Virus genome (UHGV): UHGV-0086135
DNA: 64,000 bases
From: a virus
Reading direction: 5' to 3' (one strand)
Shown here: positions 4,047 to 56,940 of the stretch, one piece after another
How positions within the stretch are numbered: position 1 is the stretch's first letter
Layout of the letters: the number at the start of each line of letters is the position of its first letter
Notes under the pieces: generated by a model
Seen by the model: the letters and a program-made list of their open reading frames with translations, nothing else
Told to the model about the DNA's origin: nothing
The model's database searches: none
Position numbers and translations under genes: made by a program

Positions 4047-4054
4047 TATAAATA
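4047..4054 (+). promoter_or_regulatory. T4 late-promoter motif TATAAATA
   Basis: Exact TATAAATA ~26 nt upstream of ORF 4080. Confidence 0.4.
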
Positions 4055-17652: not shown

Positions 17653-17828
17653 TGAAAACTGAATTGATTTATACTGAAAAGCTAAATGGTGGTAAAGTCT
17701 GGAAACTTTTTATTAAAGGAAGTCCTACTGACCCTAATATGACCACTTGTGTAGGAACTTATTCTCGTCCTACTAAAAAGATGATTCGACAATATAAGCG
17801 ATTGCATCGAATGTTTTACAATACTTGA
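17652..17828 (+). CDS. hypothetical basic small protein, 58 aa
   Basis: TAATG-coupled; not in ORF track. Confidence 0.35.
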   Translation: MKTELIYTEKLNGGKVWKLFIKGSPTDPNMTTCVGTYSRPTKKMIRQYKRLHRMFYNT

Positions 17829-17870
17829 AAATAATAAATACCCTTATCTATTCAAGGTAAGGGTTTTATT

Positions 17871-18344
17871 ATGTTATTGACTGGCAAATTATACAAAGAA
17901 GAAAAACAGAAATTTTATAACGCACAAAACGGTAAATGCTTAATTTGCCAACGAGAACTAAATCCTGATGTTCAAGCTAATCACCTTGACCATGACCATG
18001 AATTAAATGGACCAAAAGCAGGAAAGGTACGTGGATTGCTCTGTAATCTCTGCAATGCAGCGGAAGGTCAAATGAAACACAAATTTAATCGTTCTGGCTT
18101 AAAGGGGCAAGGCGTTGATTATCTTGAATGGTTAGAAAATTTACTTACTTATTTAAAATCCGATTACACCCAAAATAATATTCACCCTAACTTCGTTGGA
18201 GATAAATCAAAGGAATTTTCTCGTTTAGGAAAAGAGGAAATGATGGCTGAGATGCTTCAAAGAGGATTTGAATATAATGAATCTGACACTAAAACACAAT
18301 TAATAGCTTCATTTAAGAAGCAGCTTAGAAAGAGTTTAAAATGA
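17871..18344 (+). CDS. 49: endonuclease VII (Holliday junction resolvase)
   Basis: 157 aa; CxxC...HLDHDHELNG...CNLCN zinc/H-N-H core. Confidence 0.85.
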   Translation: MLLTGKLYKEEKQKFYNAQNGKCLICQRELNPDVQANHLDHDHELNGPKAGKVRGLLCNLCNAAEGQMKHKFNRSGLKGQGVDYLEWLENLLTYLKSDYTQNNIHPNFVGDKSKEFSRLGKEEMMAEMLQRGFEYNESDTKTQLIASFKKQLRKSLK

Positions 18345-20158: not shown

Positions 20159-20625
20159 ATTATGATAGATTTTATCCTTGTGATTTTGTGAATGGCCCTG
20201 GATGCAGGGTCGTTCTTTTCGTTACAGGTTGTTTGCATAAATGCGAAGGGTGTTATAATAAATCAACATGGAACGCTAGAAATGGTATTCCATTCACTGG
20301 TGAAACGCTGGAACAATTAATTGAATGTTTGAATAATGATTATATAGAAGGATTAACTATAACTGGAGGAGACCCTCTCTATCCTGATAACCGAGATGTT
20401 ATTCATTGCATTGTTCAAACAGTAAAAAATCTTTATCCAAATAAAAGCATTTGGTTGTGGACAGGATATAAGTTTGAAGATATTAAACAACTAGAAATGC
20501 TTAAATATGTTGATGTTATTATTGATGGGAAGTATGAGAAAAATCTTCCGACCAAAAAGTTGTGGCGAGGATCAGATAATCAGCGACTTTGGTCAAATAC
20601 CGATGGGGTGTGGAAACATGATTAA
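20155..20625 (+). CDS. nrdG: anaerobic RNR activating protein (radical SAM)
   Basis: 156 aa; CxxxCxxC motif; ATGA-coupled to nrdD. Confidence 0.9.
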   Translation: MNYDRFYPCDFVNGPGCRVVLFVTGCLHKCEGCYNKSTWNARNGIPFTGETLEQLIECLNNDYIEGLTITGGDPLYPDNRDVIHCIVQTVKNLYPNKSIWLWTGYKFEDIKQLEMLKYVDVIIDGKYEKNLPTKKLWRGSDNQRLWSNTDGVWKHD

Positions 20626-20740
20626 ATTGAATTATATTATGGACACTATAAATGATATGATTTTTCATTTTGGCCCAGAATTTTATTCGCAATATAGTTT
20701 AGTGCTTATCAATGCTTGGTTAATCAATTAAGGGTAAAAT

Positions 20741-21590: not shown

Positions 21591-21662
21591 TCACATTCTG
21601 TATATTACCATTCTAACTATCGTTCCCTTCTTATCATTCCCTAAAATAATTTTCACAAAGTT

Positions 21663-21692
21663 GTTTACAAGAAGTTCAAACTGTGGTATTAT
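21663..21692 (+). promoter_or_regulatory. T4-type early promoter
   Basis: GTTTAC 21663-21668, TATTAT 21687-21692. Confidence 0.55.
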
Positions 21693-21722
21693 TAACACAT
21701 GAATTGCCTTTGAGGAATTGAT

Positions 21723-41258: not shown

Positions 41259-42686
41259 GTGGTAGAAATTATTCTTTCTCATCTCATATTTGATCAAGCT
41301 TATTTTTCAAAAGTTTGGCCATATATGGATTCAGAATATTTTGAAAGTGGTCCAGCTAAAAATACATTCAAATTAATTAAATCTCATGTTAATGAATACC
41401 ATAGCGTTCCATCTATTAATGCGTTAAATGTTGCATTAGAAAATAGTTCATTTACTGAAACAGAATATTCTGGTGTAAAAACACTTATTTCGAAACTAGC
41501 CGATTCTCCAGAAGACCACAGCTGGTTAGTAAAAGAAACAGAAAAATATGTTCAGCAAAGGGCGATGTTTAATGCTACGTCTAAAATAATTGAAATTCAA
41601 ACTAATGCTGAGCTTCCTCCGGAAAAACGAAATAAGAAAATGCCAGATGTAGGTGCTATTCCTGACATCATGCGTCAAGCATTATCAATTTCATTTGATA
41701 GTTACGTTGGTCATGATTGGATGGATGACTACGAAGCACGTTGGCTATCTTATATGAATAAAGCTCGTAAGGTTCCATTTAAACTCAAAATTCTAAATAA
41801 AATTACTAAAGGCGGAGCTGAAACTGGAACACTGAACGTTTTAATGGCTGGTGTTAACGTTGGTAAGTCATTAGGATTGTGTTCATTGGCAGCAGATTAT
41901 TTGCAGCTCGGACATAATGTTCTTTACATTTCCATGGAAATGGCAGAAGAAGTCTGTGCTAAGCGTATTGATGCTAATATGCTTGATGTTTCTCTTGATG
42001 ACATTGATGATGGGCATATTTCTTACGCTGAGTATAAAGGAAAAATGGAAAAATGGCGTGAGAAATCTACTCTCGGTCGTTTAATCGTTAAACAGTATCC
42101 TACTGGTGGAGCAGACGCTAATACATTCAGGTCTCTCTTGAATGAATTGAAGCTCAAGAAGAATTTTGTTCCAACAATCATTATTGTTGACTATCTGGGT
42201 ATTTGTAAATCTTGCCGCATTAGAGTTTATTCAGAAAATAGTTACACAACTGTTAAAGCTATCGCAGAGGAATTGCGTGCTCTTGCTGTTGAAACTGAAA
42301 CTGTTCTTTGGACTGCAGCACAGGTTGGTAAACAAGCTTGGGATTCTTCTGATGTTAACATGAGCGATATCGCAGAATCTGCCGGTCTTCCAGCAACAGC
42401 CGATTTTATGCTTGCTGTCATTGAAACCGAGGAGTTAGCAGCTGCTGAACAACAACTTATTAAGCAAATCAAATCACGATACGGTGATAAGAATAAATGG
42501 AATAAGTTTTTGATGGGTGTTCAAAAAGGAAATCAGAAATGGGTAGAAATTGAACAAGATTCTACTCCAACTGAAGTGAACGAAGTAGCAGGTTCACAGC
42601 AGATTCAGGCTGAACAGAATCGCTATCAAAGAAACGAATCTGCTCGAGCCCAGTTAGATGCTTTGGCAAATGAATTAAAATTTTAG
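41259..42686 (+). CDS. 41: replicative DNA helicase gp41 (DnaB-like)
   Basis: 475 aa, GTG start MVEIILSHLIF; Walker A GVNVGKS. Confidence 0.95.
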   Translation: MVEIILSHLIFDQAYFSKVWPYMDSEYFESGPAKNTFKLIKSHVNEYHSVPSINALNVALENSSFTETEYSGVKTLISKLADSPEDHSWLVKETEKYVQQRAMFNATSKIIEIQTNAELPPEKRNKKMPDVGAIPDIMRQALSISFDSYVGHDWMDDYEARWLSYMNKARKVPFKLKILNKITKGGAETGTLNVLMAGVNVGKSLGLCSLAADYLQLGHNVLYISMEMAEEVCAKRIDANMLDVSLDDIDDGHISYAEYKGKMEKWREKSTLGRLIVKQYPTGGADANTFRSLLNELKLKKNFVPTIIIVDYLGICKSCRIRVYSENSYTTVKAIAEELRALAVETETVLWTAAQVGKQAWDSSDVNMSDIAESAGLPATADFMLAVIETEELAAAEQQLIKQIKSRYGDKNKWNKFLMGVQKGNQKWVEIEQDSTPTEVNEVAGSQQIQAEQNRYQRNESARAQLDALANELKF

Positions 42687-43564: not shown

Positions 43565-43921
43565 ATGTATAGTTCTGAATTTTCATATTTAAAAATGGAA
43601 AAAATTTCATACGATTTTATAGATGAAAAGGTTTATTACAGTTTCCATGAACCACGTTTTAATAGTGAAGTTGGGTTTATTGTAGTAAAAGACAATTTCA
43701 TTTTAAAAATATATTCGGCATTAAAGGATTTTCACTACGAAAATATTAACCTAAAATTTGATAAAGAAAATGTTCGTAATTGCGCAGTAACAATTACAGG
43801 AAATAAAGGTACATGCGTTATGCTATCTGATGAAATTAATGATTTGTTAAATGATGTAGAAAAGGTTGCTATTCCATCTATTGATGACCAAATTTTTAAT
43901 GCTTTTATGAATAGAGGTTAA
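43565..43921 (+). CDS. hypothetical protein, 118 aa (61.2 position)
   Basis: SD-preceded ORF. Confidence 0.5.
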   Translation: MYSSEFSYLKMEKISYDFIDEKVYYSFHEPRFNSEVGFIVVKDNFILKIYSALKDFHYENINLKFDKENVRNCAVTITGNKGTCVMLSDEINDLLNDVEKVAIPSIDDQIFNAFMNRG

Positions 43922-44089: not shown

Positions 44090-45118
44090 ATGTCATCAAT
44101 ACCTTGGATTGATAATGAGTTTGCATACCGCGCATTAGCTCATTTACCTAAATTCACACAAGTAAATAATAGTTCAACTTTTAAATTGCGGTTTAGATGC
44201 CCTGTTTGTGGAGATTCAAAAACCGACCAAAATAAAGCCCGTGGATGGTATTATGGTGATAATAATGAAGGAAATATTCATTGTTATAACTGCAACTATC
44301 ATGCACCAATCGGAATATATTTAAAGGAGTTTGAACCTGATTTATATCGTGAGTATATCTTTGAAATAAGAAAAGAAAAAGGTAAAAGTCGTCCAGTAGA
44401 AAAGCCTAAAGAACTTCCTAAACAACCTGAGAAGAAAATAATTAAATCTCTTCCGTCATGTATTAGATTAGATAAACTGGCGGAAGACCATCCAATTATA
44501 AAATATGTAAAAGCTCGTTGTATTCCAAAGGATAAATGGAAATATCTTTGGTTTACAACCGAATGGCCTAAATTAGTTAATAGCATAGCACCAGGAACAT
44601 ATAAAAAGGAAATACCTGAGCCTCGTCTTGTTATTCCAATTTATAATGCTAATGGAAAAGCTGAGTCTTTTCAAGGACGTGCATTAAAGAAAGATGCTCC
44701 TCAAAAATATATCACCATCAAAGCTTATCCTGAGGCAACAAAAATTTATGGAGTTGAACGAGTCAAAGATGGTGATGTATATGTTCTAGAAGGACCTATA
44801 GATTCACTTTTTATTGAAAATGGTATAGCTATTACGGGCGGTCAATTAGACCTAGAAATTGTTCCATTTAAAGATAGACGTGTGTGGGTTTTAGATAATG
44901 AACCTCGTCACCCTGACACTATTAAACGAATGACTAAATTAGTTGATGCAGGAGAAAGGGTTATGTTTTGGGATAAATCTCCCTGGAAATCAAAAGATGT
45001 TAATGATATGATTAGAAAGGAAGGTGCAACCCCTAAACAAATTATGGAATATATGAAAAATAATATTGCCCAAGGGTTGATGGCTAAAATGCGGCTATCT
45101 AAATACGCTAAGATTTAA
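44090..45118 (+). CDS. 61: DNA primase gp61
   Basis: 342 aa; N-terminal zinc ribbon CPVCGDS...CYNC; TOPRIM-like region. Confidence 0.9.
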   Translation: MSSIPWIDNEFAYRALAHLPKFTQVNNSSTFKLRFRCPVCGDSKTDQNKARGWYYGDNNEGNIHCYNCNYHAPIGIYLKEFEPDLYREYIFEIRKEKGKSRPVEKPKELPKQPEKKIIKSLPSCIRLDKLAEDHPIIKYVKARCIPKDKWKYLWFTTEWPKLVNSIAPGTYKKEIPEPRLVIPIYNANGKAESFQGRALKKDAPQKYITIKAYPEATKIYGVERVKDGDVYVLEGPIDSLFIENGIAITGGQLDLEIVPFKDRRVWVLDNEPRHPDTIKRMTKLVDAGERVMFWDKSPWKSKDVNDMIRKEGATPKQIMEYMKNNIAQGLMAKMRLSKYAKI

Positions 45119-45315
45119 ATTAACCCAACTAAAGCAAATGCTAAATCTACGAATGTATCAAGAGTAATTACTGGAATATTAACACCATGAGCAATAGCAA
45201 TTGGTGATAAAACAAAATTCCAGAGTAAAATTCCTACCATAGCAGAAATAGTAAAAGCTATACGTTTTTTATTACCTTTTATGGCATTAACAAGTGCCAT
45301 TAATTTTTGTACCAT
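45115..45315 (-). CDS. small membrane protein, 66 aa (only supported minus-strand gene)
   Basis: AAGGAGG SD 5 nt upstream of ATG on minus strand; two hydrophobic helices. Confidence 0.45.
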   Translation of the reverse strand: MVQKLMALVNAIKGNKKRIAFTISAMVGILLWNFVLSPIAIAHGVNIPVITLDTFVDLAFALVGLI

Positions 45316-45386
45316 ATATCCTCCTTATTGCTTTATATATTTATTGTATAATTAATCTACTAACCCATGAATTGAAAGGAAAAATA

Positions 45387-45905
45387 ATGGCATACTTTAA
45401 TGAATGTTCACAACTGATTGAAGGCGCTGATAAAGCTCAAAATGAATACTGGGATATTCTCGGTGATGAAAAAGACCCTCTGCAAGTTATGCTTGATATG
45501 CAGAAATCTCTACAGGTTCGTTTAGCTAAAGATAAACCTGAATATAACCGTCATCCTGATGATTTGGCTACTGCGGGTGAAGTTGTTGATTGGCTGCGTA
45601 ATCAGAAAGATTATATTGATGATGAATTCCGCGAACTACTGACTTCTCTTGGTGGTATGAGCAATGGTGAAAAAGATGCATCTGCTGTATGGAAGCCTTG
45701 GAAAGCTCAACATGGTGAACGACGTGAAACTTTAATTACTGATTTGTCTCCACAAGACCAGTTGGAAATTAAATTCGAAATGATTGATATTCTTCATTTC
45801 GTTCTAAACATGTTCCAAGGTCTCGGTCTTACGGCTGAAGAAATCTTTAAACTTTATTATCTGAAAAATGCTGAAAACTTCGCTCGTCAAGACCGAGGTT
45901 ATTAA
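45387..45905 (+). CDS. 56: dCTPase/dUTPase gp56
   Basis: 172 aa from MAYFNECSQLIEG; MazG-like; TGTATAAT promoter upstream. Confidence 0.85.
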   Translation: MAYFNECSQLIEGADKAQNEYWDILGDEKDPLQVMLDMQKSLQVRLAKDKPEYNRHPDDLATAGEVVDWLRNQKDYIDDEFRELLTSLGGMSNGEKDASAVWKPWKAQHGERRETLITDLSPQDQLEIKFEMIDILHFVLNMFQGLGLTAEEIFKLYYLKNAENFARQDRGY

Positions 45906-46114
45906 TGGCTCGTTTAAATAAACGTCAACTTAAGAAAGCCCACAAGAAACGTATTGACCAGCTATTTAAAAATTATGACAAGGAGCTCGTATGTGAGCTC
46001 TTATCTAATCAGCTTCGTGTGGTTGATTGGGTTGATTGGGTTGTAGAAGAAGGTCCTGATGAAATTTTTGTCAGTGAAGAAGCCTTAAAATTAATTATAG
46101 AGCATTCAAAATGA
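45905..46114 (+). CDS. hypothetical protein, 69 aa
   Basis: TAATG-coupled; WVDWVDWV from tandem 9-bp repeat. Confidence 0.45.
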   Translation: MARLNKRQLKKAHKKRIDQLFKNYDKELVCELLSNQLRVVDWVDWVVEEGPDEIFVSEEALKLIIEHSK

Positions 46115-46284
46115 AAATATCCAAAGAAGAATTTATTAGACGACAAAAAGCTTTAATTAATTTACACGAGTGGTATGCTTATCAGCTTAAAGTAGATAGC
46201 TCTAATATAAATGCTGTAATGGCTTTATATAAACAAATTCAAGATGAACACGAATTCCTGGCACAAGTTTTCATTGAAGACTGA
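46111..46284 (+). CDS. hypothetical protein, 57 aa
   Basis: ATGA-coupled; not in ORF track. Confidence 0.35.
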   Translation: MKISKEEFIRRQKALINLHEWYAYQLKVDSSNINAVMALYKQIQDEHEFLAQVFIED

Positions 46285-46292
46285 TATAAATA
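46285..46292 (+). promoter_or_regulatory. T4 late promoter TATAAATA upstream of soc
   Basis: Exact TATAAATA 32 nt upstream of soc start. Confidence 0.6.
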
Positions 46293-46323
46293 CACTTGTA
46301 ATTAAACAATAAAGGAGTTTATT

Positions 46324-46560
46324 ATGGGTGGTTTCGTTAACATCAAGACCTTTACTCATCCAGCGGGTGAAGGCAAAGAAGTTAAAGGTATGGAAGTTTC
46401 TGTTCCGTTTGAAATTTATTCTAACGAGCATCGTATCGCAGATTCTCATTATCAGATCTTTCCTTCTGAAGAGGCAGCATATTCTACCGTAGTTTCTAAT
46501 GCAGCTGATTGGAAAACTAAGAATGCTGCAATGTTTACGCCTACACAAATAGGTGGTTAA
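46324..46560 (+). CDS. soc: small outer capsid protein Soc
   Basis: 78 aa; VNIKTF...HYQIFPSEEAAYSTV resembles T4 Soc. Confidence 0.8.
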   Translation: MGGFVNIKTFTHPAGEGKEVKGMEVSVPFEIYSNEHRIADSHYQIFPSEEAAYSTVVSNAADWKTKNAAMFTPTQIGG

Positions 46561-56568: not shown

Positions 56569-56940
56569 ATGTTTAAAATTGGTAAGAAATATCGCATTCG
56601 CGAAGGTGAAGAAAAGAAATATCTATTTTCTGCTATTTATAGGAATGGTTCTATTAATGCCGTAATATCTACAAGCGAATTTATCGTTGAAGATATGAAA
56701 GGTAATAATGTTACAATGATTAGTACAGCATCTGGAAATGATGGAAAAATTCTTCACAGTTTTCAGAGTAATGTTCTAATATATGATGAAGAATTTGACC
56801 TATTCGAAGAAGTCCCCGAAGGTTTTGATTTTGAATGCACTATCACTATGAAATCTGGTGACCCTCTTTCATTTACAGTTAAAGATGAAAGAAGTCGCTT
56901 GAGAATTATTAGTCTCCTTCAAGCCATTAAATTTAAGTGA
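56569..56940 (+). CDS. hypothetical protein, 123 aa
   Basis: SD-preceded ORF. Confidence 0.5.
   Translation: MFKIGKKYRIREGEEKKYLFSAIYRNGSINAVISTSEFIVEDMKGNNVTMISTASGNDGKILHSFQSNVLIYDEEFDLFEEVPEGFDFECTITMKSGDPLSFTVKDERSRLRIISLLQAIKFK

Follow-up and report, generated by a model that had tools for sequence, protein, structure and literature searches.

An antisense gene for a small, probably late membrane protein between genes 61 and 56 of a T4-like phage, and the absence of dam beside it

In phage T4 the dam methylase gene lies next to gene 56, close to the DNA primase gene 61. At the same address a related phage carries a 66-aa ORF on the opposite strand and no dam, which raises two questions: is the small ORF a gene, and is it connected with the missing methylase? 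The DNA analysed, referred to as the window, is a stretch of 64 kb and represents part of the phage genome. It is DNA of a Tequatrovirus (T4-like coliphage) in an orientation opposite to that of the standard T4 map, and its identity to database records is at most about 97% over 24 kb. The nearest relatives include HY01, pSs-1 and L14. The complete genome of the close relative pSs-1 was used as a stand-in for the genome outside the window. The locus is laid out as follows.

41259-42686: helicase gene 41, followed by the small genes from dmd to 61.1 and then by gene 61
44090-45118, plus strand: gene 61, DNA primase (phrog_47, E = 2e-106; annotation of relatives)
45115-45315, minus strand: small ORF (dam.1, RB32ORF030w, phrog_2024), ATG to TAA, 66 aa, predicted small inner-membrane protein
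45320-45326, minus strand: Shine-Dalgarno sequence AAGGAGG of the small ORF, 4 nt from its ATG, read directly from the sequence
45387-45905, plus strand: gene 56, dCTPase/dUTPase (phrog_173, E = 1e-46; Pfam dUTPase_2; annotation of relatives)
46324-46560: soc (Pfam Soc), with two small ORFs between it and gene 56

The gap between the stop codon of gene 61 (45118) and the ATG of gene 56 (45387) measures 268 bp. The small ORF and gene 61 are convergent, with stop codons that overlap by 4 nt. The initial annotation had described a 66-aa minus-strand ORF in this gap, preceded by AAGGAGG at a spacing of 5 nt; the ORF and its ribosome-binding site were found as described, while the spacing is 4 nt. 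The ORF had also been called the only antisense gene. This is borne out within the reach of one test, the presence of an ATG and a Shine-Dalgarno sequence: where gaps between plus-strand genes contain minus-strand ORFs of 25 aa or more, it alone has both. In the equivalent region of pSs-1 two opposite-strand CDSs are annotated, the small ORF and a 35-aa call. The likely counterpart of the latter in the window, assigned by position and length and not by alignment, is without a ribosome-binding site.

The small ORF matched the PHROGs family phrog_2024 with E = 5.4e-31, residues 2-66 covering profile positions 1-65 of 65. This is a family of unknown function. In annotations derived from RB32 and RB14 the ORF is named RB32ORF030w, and in phage T4T it is dam.1 (ADJ39749.1). 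These proteins are identical to that of the window in 62-66 of 66 residues, and their Shine-Dalgarno sequence and ATAAATA box are alike. The surroundings differ, since in T4 and T4T dam lies directly upstream of the small gene, whereas in the window the small gene abuts the promoter of gene 56. Databases already contain the exact protein of the window from about 100 contigs, under the name 'hypothetical protein'. The small ORF is thus an already catalogued gene, and hundreds of genomes carry it under that label. It is present in T4 too, at 17738-17938, with 62 of 66 residues identical, inside the 309-bp gap between gene 61 and dam; in the T4 reference records NC_000866 and AF158101 it is unannotated. 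Transcriptomic, proteomic and knock-down studies built on these two records would not score the gene. Searches of the literature on dam.1, RB32ORF030w, T4 ribosome profiling and unannotated small ORFs returned nothing on it, and among work on T4 transcription start sites and late promoters we found no paper that mentions it. Petrov et al. 2010 accounts for the T4T record without discussing the small ORF. What the present analysis adds to a gene deposited hundreds of times is the omission from the T4 reference records and evidence, from sequence comparison and structural models, that it is a real and probably late gene for a membrane-associated protein.

A tblastn search found the small ORF in 693 phage records, in every one of them adjoining the primase gene. 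At least 80% identity was seen in 503 records; about 190 others, from Mosigvirus and Gaprivervirus, were about 50% identical. Members of phrog_2024 that form a second subfamily are found, with position and orientation unchanged, in Dhaka-, Gapriver-, Marfa-, Mosuguk-, Gelderland- and Kanagawavirus. Divergent members such as those of ST0 and the second copy of VR25 matched the profile at E about 3e-27; VR25 has two copies in tandem, one of each subfamily. The arrangement of the window, in which the antisense ORF lies upstream of gene 56 and converges with the primase gene, is kept in T4 and pSs-1 and also in ST0, VR25, JS98, Marfa, PM2, CGG4-1, CIP9 and PEi20, and T-even-like phages of at least eight genera share the antisense position beside the primase gene. 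The family does not extend beyond these phages: among 1.84 billion representative proteins a profile search picked out six, all from one phage family. Scans of Pfam, NCBIfam and PHROGs with four divergent members gave no match but phrog_2024.

If the small ORF served as a protein-coding gene its substitutions should follow the reading frame. Among nine distinct Tequatrovirus alleles the variable sites fall on codon positions 1, 2 and 3 in the numbers 7, 2 and 13, and dN/dS of most allele pairs is 0.1-0.2. Saturation of synonymous sites is seen between genera (pS 0.58-0.93), as against a pN of 0.13-0.36. The length stays within 61-74 aa throughout the family, and the GGAG core of the Shine-Dalgarno sequence is present in all 11 lineages examined. 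Conservation in relatives had been proposed as a check by the initial annotation; it extends across genera with the low dN/dS just given. By this pattern the small ORF is a genuine conserved protein-coding gene under purifying selection.

The same stretch carries a second feature, which reads in the direction of gene 61.

45281-45310, plus strand: terminator-like hairpin with T-run downstream of gene 61, antisense to codons 5-12 of the small ORF (pattern scan)

This hairpin (fold -8.9 kcal/mol, z -2.6) is present in the window and in Tequatrovirus, is annotated as a terminator in the record of fPS-2, and is a plausible terminator for gene 61. Together with the missing annotation in the T4 reference record it would suit the view that the 200 bp are the 3' untranslated region of gene 61 with its terminator, conserved as such, and that the ORF within them is spurious. 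Yet the hairpin is absent in Mosigvirus and Gaprivervirus, where the ORF persists and has retained its length, Shine-Dalgarno sequence and late box (see below). Thus the hairpin cannot explain the conservation of the ORF. The tandem paralogues of VR25, the predominance of third-position substitutions, the dN/dS values and the excess of pS over pN between genera argue in the same direction, and we consider a spurious ORF exceedingly improbable.

The timing of expression was addressed by way of the promoter. T4 late boxes were taken to be of the TATAAATA type, differing from it in no more than one position and lying shortly upstream of the gene; such a box was found before the small ORF as well as before soc.

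45338-45345, minus strand: predicted gp55-type late box AATAAATA, 22 nt before the ATG of the small ORF, a variant with A at -13
46285-46292: late box of soc, TATAAATA-type, 20-30 nt before the start codon, annotated as P(L)15.32 in X01416

Late, gp55-dependent transcription from the box of the small ORF is predicted to start near 45331, about 16 nt upstream of the ATG. Each of the 11 lineages has the motif (N)ATAAATA upstream of the ATG at a distance of 13-22 nt, embedded in divergent sequence. It reads AATAAATA in the window and in JS98 and GATAAATA in T4, while Marfa and CIP9 have the perfect consensus TATAAATA. In the window and in T4 the -13 position is not the consensus T. An A at -13 is the commonest natural variant, found in 9 of 50 listed T4 late-promoter sites, though the same source counsels caution on the in vivo strength of variant late promoters (Geiduschek and Kassavetis, PMC2988020). 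Early and middle transcripts of T4 all have one polarity, and late transcripts have either (PMC2988020). Because the small gene is opposed in strand to its early neighbours, the polarity rule of T4 leads one to expect it to be late. Furthermore, the motif WATAAATA is five-fold depleted in the window, with 5 copies on both strands against 26 ± 5 expected, and four of the five lie 22-31 nt before a Shine-Dalgarno sequence and ATG. These four belong to soc, the small ORF and two plus-strand genes (boxes at 4047 and 17833). A minus-strand TATAAATA at 56634-56641 is followed by no ORF. In T4 soc resembles the small ORF in being a small gene with a late box of its own in a neighbourhood of early genes. 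Unlike the small ORF, which lies on the opposite strand and encodes a hydrophobic protein of membrane type, soc shares the strand of the early genes around it, and its product decorates the capsid. Taken together, promoter motif and strand indicate that the small ORF is most likely expressed late from a gp55-type promoter. Comparison of the genomes shows a real gene that is conserved in position and orientation and in its promoter and ribosome-binding-site motifs; its product is hydrophobic.

The late box lies within the promoter of gene 56 on the other strand. The initial annotation had named one motif in the gap as this promoter; its location was right, and more precisely it is a homologue of T4 P(M)16.53 composed of a mot box and TATAAT.

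45327-45333, plus strand: MotA box ATTGCTT of the gene 56 middle promoter, aligned with the mot box of T4 P(M)16.53 (X01416)
45347-45352, plus strand: -10 hexamer TATAAT of the gene 56 middle promoter, aligned with the -10 of T4 P(M)16.53
45345-45352: TGTATAAT, the motif first named as the gene 56 promoter

The criterion for a middle promoter was the mot box (a/t)(a/t)TGCTT(t/c)A, followed after about 12-14 nt by a sigma-70 -10, without a -35. Here the spacer is 13 nt, and the alignment with P(M)16.53 is column for column. According to a note in the T4 record the transcript of P(M)16.53 primes oriA. In the window the minus-strand late box is located inside the 13-nt spacer. The late promoter that would drive the small gene and the MotA-dependent promoter of gene 56 stand back to back. 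In JS98, ST0 and T4 the late box lies outside the spacer, upstream of the mot box, and thus the interleaving of the two promoters is lineage-specific. In T4 and T2 they are 0.9-1.5 kb apart with cargo genes between them.

At the other end of the small gene the transcripts would likewise meet. The transcript of gene 61 would cross the small gene antisense, up to the weak hairpin terminator, while fold analysis found no hairpin or terminator downstream of the small ORF. Since the stop codons overlap and there is no terminator, a late transcript must run antisense into gene 61. This opens the view that the late RNA or its promoter is the important product, which would occlude the promoter of gene 56 and oriA, pair with the primase mRNA and so help to shut off early and middle functions, with the peptide being secondary. 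The late box within the middle-promoter spacer, an overlap with gene 61 that leaves no space for a terminator, and the convergent arrangement in every genus examined are in line with such a role. On the other hand, the interleaving is not conserved, given the distance between the promoters in T4 and T2, and the strong constraint on the amino acids implies that the protein itself is selected. We therefore give the primacy of the antisense RNA little credence and retain the view that the gene is kept for its protein.

The AlphaFold2 model of the protein (pLDDT 77) comprises three helices, one N-terminal and amphipathic (residues 2-12), one long and hydrophobic (16-42) and one short, at the C-terminus (52-63). 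Hydropathy exceeds 1.5 over residues about 17-42. The N-terminal part contains the basic cluster KGNKKR, the C-terminus reads ...DLAFALVGLI, and the transmembrane helix carries the invariant motif WN(F/L)xxxP..A...G..(L/I/V)P.V. The C-terminal helix is hydrophobic in Tequatrovirus and has charged or polar residues in other genera. The protein had been called a two-helix membrane protein. The membrane helix at 16-42 was borne out; a second one was not, as the C-terminal segment is not uniformly hydrophobic. Because of the charged and polar residues of this helix in other genera we favour a single transmembrane span with a periplasmic or interfacial helix, which appears at least as likely as a hairpin. 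The basic N-terminus suggests, by the positive-inside rule, an N-in orientation with a cytoplasmic N-terminus. The predicted product is thus an N-in inner-membrane protein of about 7 kDa, the C-terminal helix of which would be periplasmic or embedded in the membrane. From late timing and N-in topology, themselves predictions, we infer that it would act late at the cell envelope.

As to function, one obvious candidate is a holin or pinholin-like lysis effector. The protein is small, hydrophobic and probably late, helix 16-42 provides the at least one transmembrane domain expected of a small holin, and a homologue of phage OE5505 bears the automatic UniProt name 'Holin'. However, its charge is N-terminal and the charged C-terminal tail of holins is missing. 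Its neighbours are the primase and dCTPase genes, with no endolysin or other lysis gene adjoining, and a T holin is already annotated elsewhere in pSs-1. No holin family was matched in Pfam, NCBIfam or PHROGs. Foldseek against viral models found only its own family above chance, with labelled holins at E above 5. For these reasons, namely the lack of a holin-family match, fold matches at chance level, no charged C-terminal tail and no linkage to lysis genes, we rejected the holin label, and a holin function is unlikely. Imm and the RI antiholin are small T4 inner-membrane proteins that act at the envelope and are encoded elsewhere in the genome. The small protein is similar to them in size and in having a membrane segment, and theirs is the functional class that we think most likely; the comparison is an analogy only, as scans of Pfam, NCBIfam and PHROGs gave no sequence or profile similarity to either. 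Our best guess, based on physico-chemical features, is a role in the timing or inhibition of lysis or in superinfection signalling; the alternative would be membrane-associated assembly.

The second question concerned dam. The initial annotation placed T4 dam near gene 56, and the T4 map agrees: the order there is gene 61, a 309-bp gap, dam, gene 56, segF and soc, with dam between the small gene and gene 56. Compared with the T4 Dam (MethyltransfD12) locus the window has the same address, from gene 61 and dam.1 to gene 56, and the methylase is missing from it. The statement that neither flank of gene 56 (45119-45386 and 45905-46323) can hold about 260 codons was confirmed. In a tblastn search of the whole 64-kb window with T4 Dam the best match had E = 0.7 over 28 aa. 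It is located at 20543-20626 on the antisense strand of another gene and was dismissed as a chance match. Short flanks and the lack of any ORF in the window resembling T4 Dam, its DPPY motif region included, together support the absence of dam from the locus. Both claims of the initial annotation, the small antisense membrane-protein gene and the absence of dam, are thus supported, and the observation behind them was accurate.

There are 182 phage records with a T4-type Dam at an identity of at least 90%, compared with about 503 that carry the small ORF of Tequatrovirus type, and from these numbers about two thirds of the Tequatrovirus-type relatives are without dam. In the outgroup genera examined there is no dam at this place, and the small ORF adjoins gene 56 or another small gene. 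By these counts the missing dam is an ordinary difference in gene content, with absence as the commoner state, in keeping with the known accessory variation of dam among T-even phages. Because T4 has both genes side by side, the small gene is no substitute for dam; the two are independent features of one locus.

Because the window is part of a genome, a Dam-type methylase might have been relocated to a site outside the 64 kb. There is a precedent in the Tequatrovirus T4_ev240, where a divergent Dam-like ORF (H82, 33% identity) lies at another site. Yet the complete 165-kb genome of pSs-1 gave no Dam match (best E about 1) and has no annotated methyltransferase, and all T4-type Dam matches with comparable coordinates or readable flanks are at the locus between gene 61 and gene 56. 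We regard a relocated methylase as very unlikely; judged by these searches the phage most likely makes no Dam of its own.

When dam is present it is often accompanied. In most dam-bearing records, T2 included, a 186-aa ORF (phrog_8706; about 155 records) lies directly upstream of dam and overlaps its start, and the pair of orf186 and dam is found at the same locus in more diverged metagenomic T4-like contigs. The AlphaFold2 model of orf186 (pLDDT 81) gave weak matches to the PD-(D/E)XK nucleases McrC, Bax1, Can2/Card1 and N.BspD6I. The protein has an invariant D...ExK motif, and its match to Pfam DpnII, a GATC enzyme, was below threshold (E = 0.0045). From these weak matches orf186 is tentatively described as a nuclease-like protein of the PD-(D/E)XK fold. 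In some records only its last 28 codons are left, and the interval upstream of dam in T4 is too short for a full orf186. Thus, T2-type genomes differ from the window in having the nuclease-like ORF along with dam, where the window has neither. In fPS-2 the dam site is occupied by a homing endonuclease. Because T4 has dam, T2-type genomes have orf186 and dam, and fPS-2 has a homing endonuclease, the short interval from the start of the small gene to the gene 56 promoter is, on comparison of the genomes, a variable cargo site. It is empty in the window and in most relatives. A clean insertion junction between the window and T4 could not be defined, as the late box and the mot box differ in their order. 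We consider it quite probable, then, that the dam.1-family gene is a real membrane-protein gene read from a late promoter and that dam is a separate matter of the cargo site, in a phage which most likely lacks a Dam of its own.

A more far-reaching reading links the membrane protein, the overlap and the cargo site. Here the dam.1 family would be a late envelope factor universal among enterobacterial T-even-like phages, and its omission from the T4 reference annotation would be the reason why it has escaped study. The convergent overlap with the primase gene would be part of the switch from early to late, acting by antisense RNA against the primase mRNA, and genomes without dam would add occlusion of the origin-priming promoter of gene 56 and oriA. 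It is improbable that all of this holds jointly with a conflict over the cargo site, in which the nuclease-plus-Dam cassette would act like restriction-modification between competing T-even phages and the window would be an empty site. GATC is strongly depleted in the window, with an observed/expected ratio of 0.36, which in that reading would be a footprint of the conflict.

The conserved 66-aa minus-strand gene lying between primase gene 61 and the dCTPase gene 56 corresponds to dam.1, which is annotated in the T4T record and left unannotated in the reference T4 records NC_000866 and AF158101. For the dam.1 protein of T4, an exact sequence match was found in raw-assembly sources only. In VR25, a Gaprivervirus, the space between primase and gene 56 holds two tandem small membrane-protein paralogues, one for each subfamily of phrog_2024.

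Copies of the 66-aa gene and its paralogues:
17738-17938 of NC_000866/AF158101 (4239-4439 of T4 locus L002), plus strand, T4 copy
2495-2692 of VR25 locus L011, plus strand, small membrane-protein paralogue
2701-2901 of VR25 locus L011, plus strand, small membrane-protein paralogue

In the window, a terminator-like hairpin followed by a T-run, a putative terminator of the primase transcript, is located at 45281-45310 (plus strand) and occupies codons 5-12 of the small ORF in antisense. The hairpin is specific to Tequatrovirus.

The interval from gene 56 to soc is a second difference in gene content between the window and T4 within the same 2 kb. T4 carries the homing endonuclease segF there, whereas the window has two small ORFs, of the families phrog_5782 and phrog_9053. 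The former is labelled 'virion structural protein', and relatives name it soc.2.

Small ORFs between gene 56 and soc:
45905-46114, plus strand, phrog_5782
46111-46284, plus strand, phrog_9053

In phage T2 and about 155 further records, an ORF of 186 aa (phrog_8706, a PHROGs family with no assigned function), which is not part of the window, lies directly 5' of dam and overlaps the dam start; it has the same arrangement in diverged metagenomic T4-like contigs. In some records its last 28 codons are the sole remnant.

Examples of the 186-aa ORF:
841-1401 of locus L009 (IMGVR_UViG_2974787500_000001), minus strand
1480-2043 of locus L025; also present in loci L026 and L027

A D...ExK motif is invariant in this ORF, PD-(D/E)XK nucleases were weak matches to its AlphaFold2 model (pLDDT 81), and a Pfam search gave a sub-threshold match to the GATC endonuclease DpnII (E = 0.0045). 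The 186-aa ORF and Dam may form a restriction-modification-like pair.

GATC was the most depleted 4-base palindrome in both the whole window (76 observed, 212 expected) and the whole genome of its relative pSs-1 (205 against 574), with an observed/expected ratio of 0.36, although neither sequence encodes a Dam.

The pSs-1 annotation contains an opposite-strand CDS of 35 aa, gp84, adjoining nrdH. Its likely counterpart, paired by position and length without alignment, has a GTG start and no Shine-Dalgarno sequence, and is probably not a gene.

The 35-aa call:
43773-43880 of pSs-1, plus strand, gp84
21591-21698 of the window, minus strand, likely counterpart

The late-promoter motif WATAAATA was five-fold depleted in the window, an early-gene region (5 observed, 26 ± 5 expected). 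One copy precedes the small ORF; the others are as follows.

Further WATAAATA copies:
4047-4054, plus strand, Shine-Dalgarno and ATG downstream
17833-17840, plus strand, Shine-Dalgarno and ATG downstream
46285-46292, plus strand, Shine-Dalgarno and ATG downstream
56634-56641, minus strand, within a plus-strand gene, no ORF downstream

All three plus-strand copies sit 25-31 nt before a Shine-Dalgarno sequence and ATG, one of these being that of soc. The minus-strand copy at 56634 falls within a plus-strand gene and is followed by no ORF, so it may mark the start of an antisense late RNA or may be a chance survivor.
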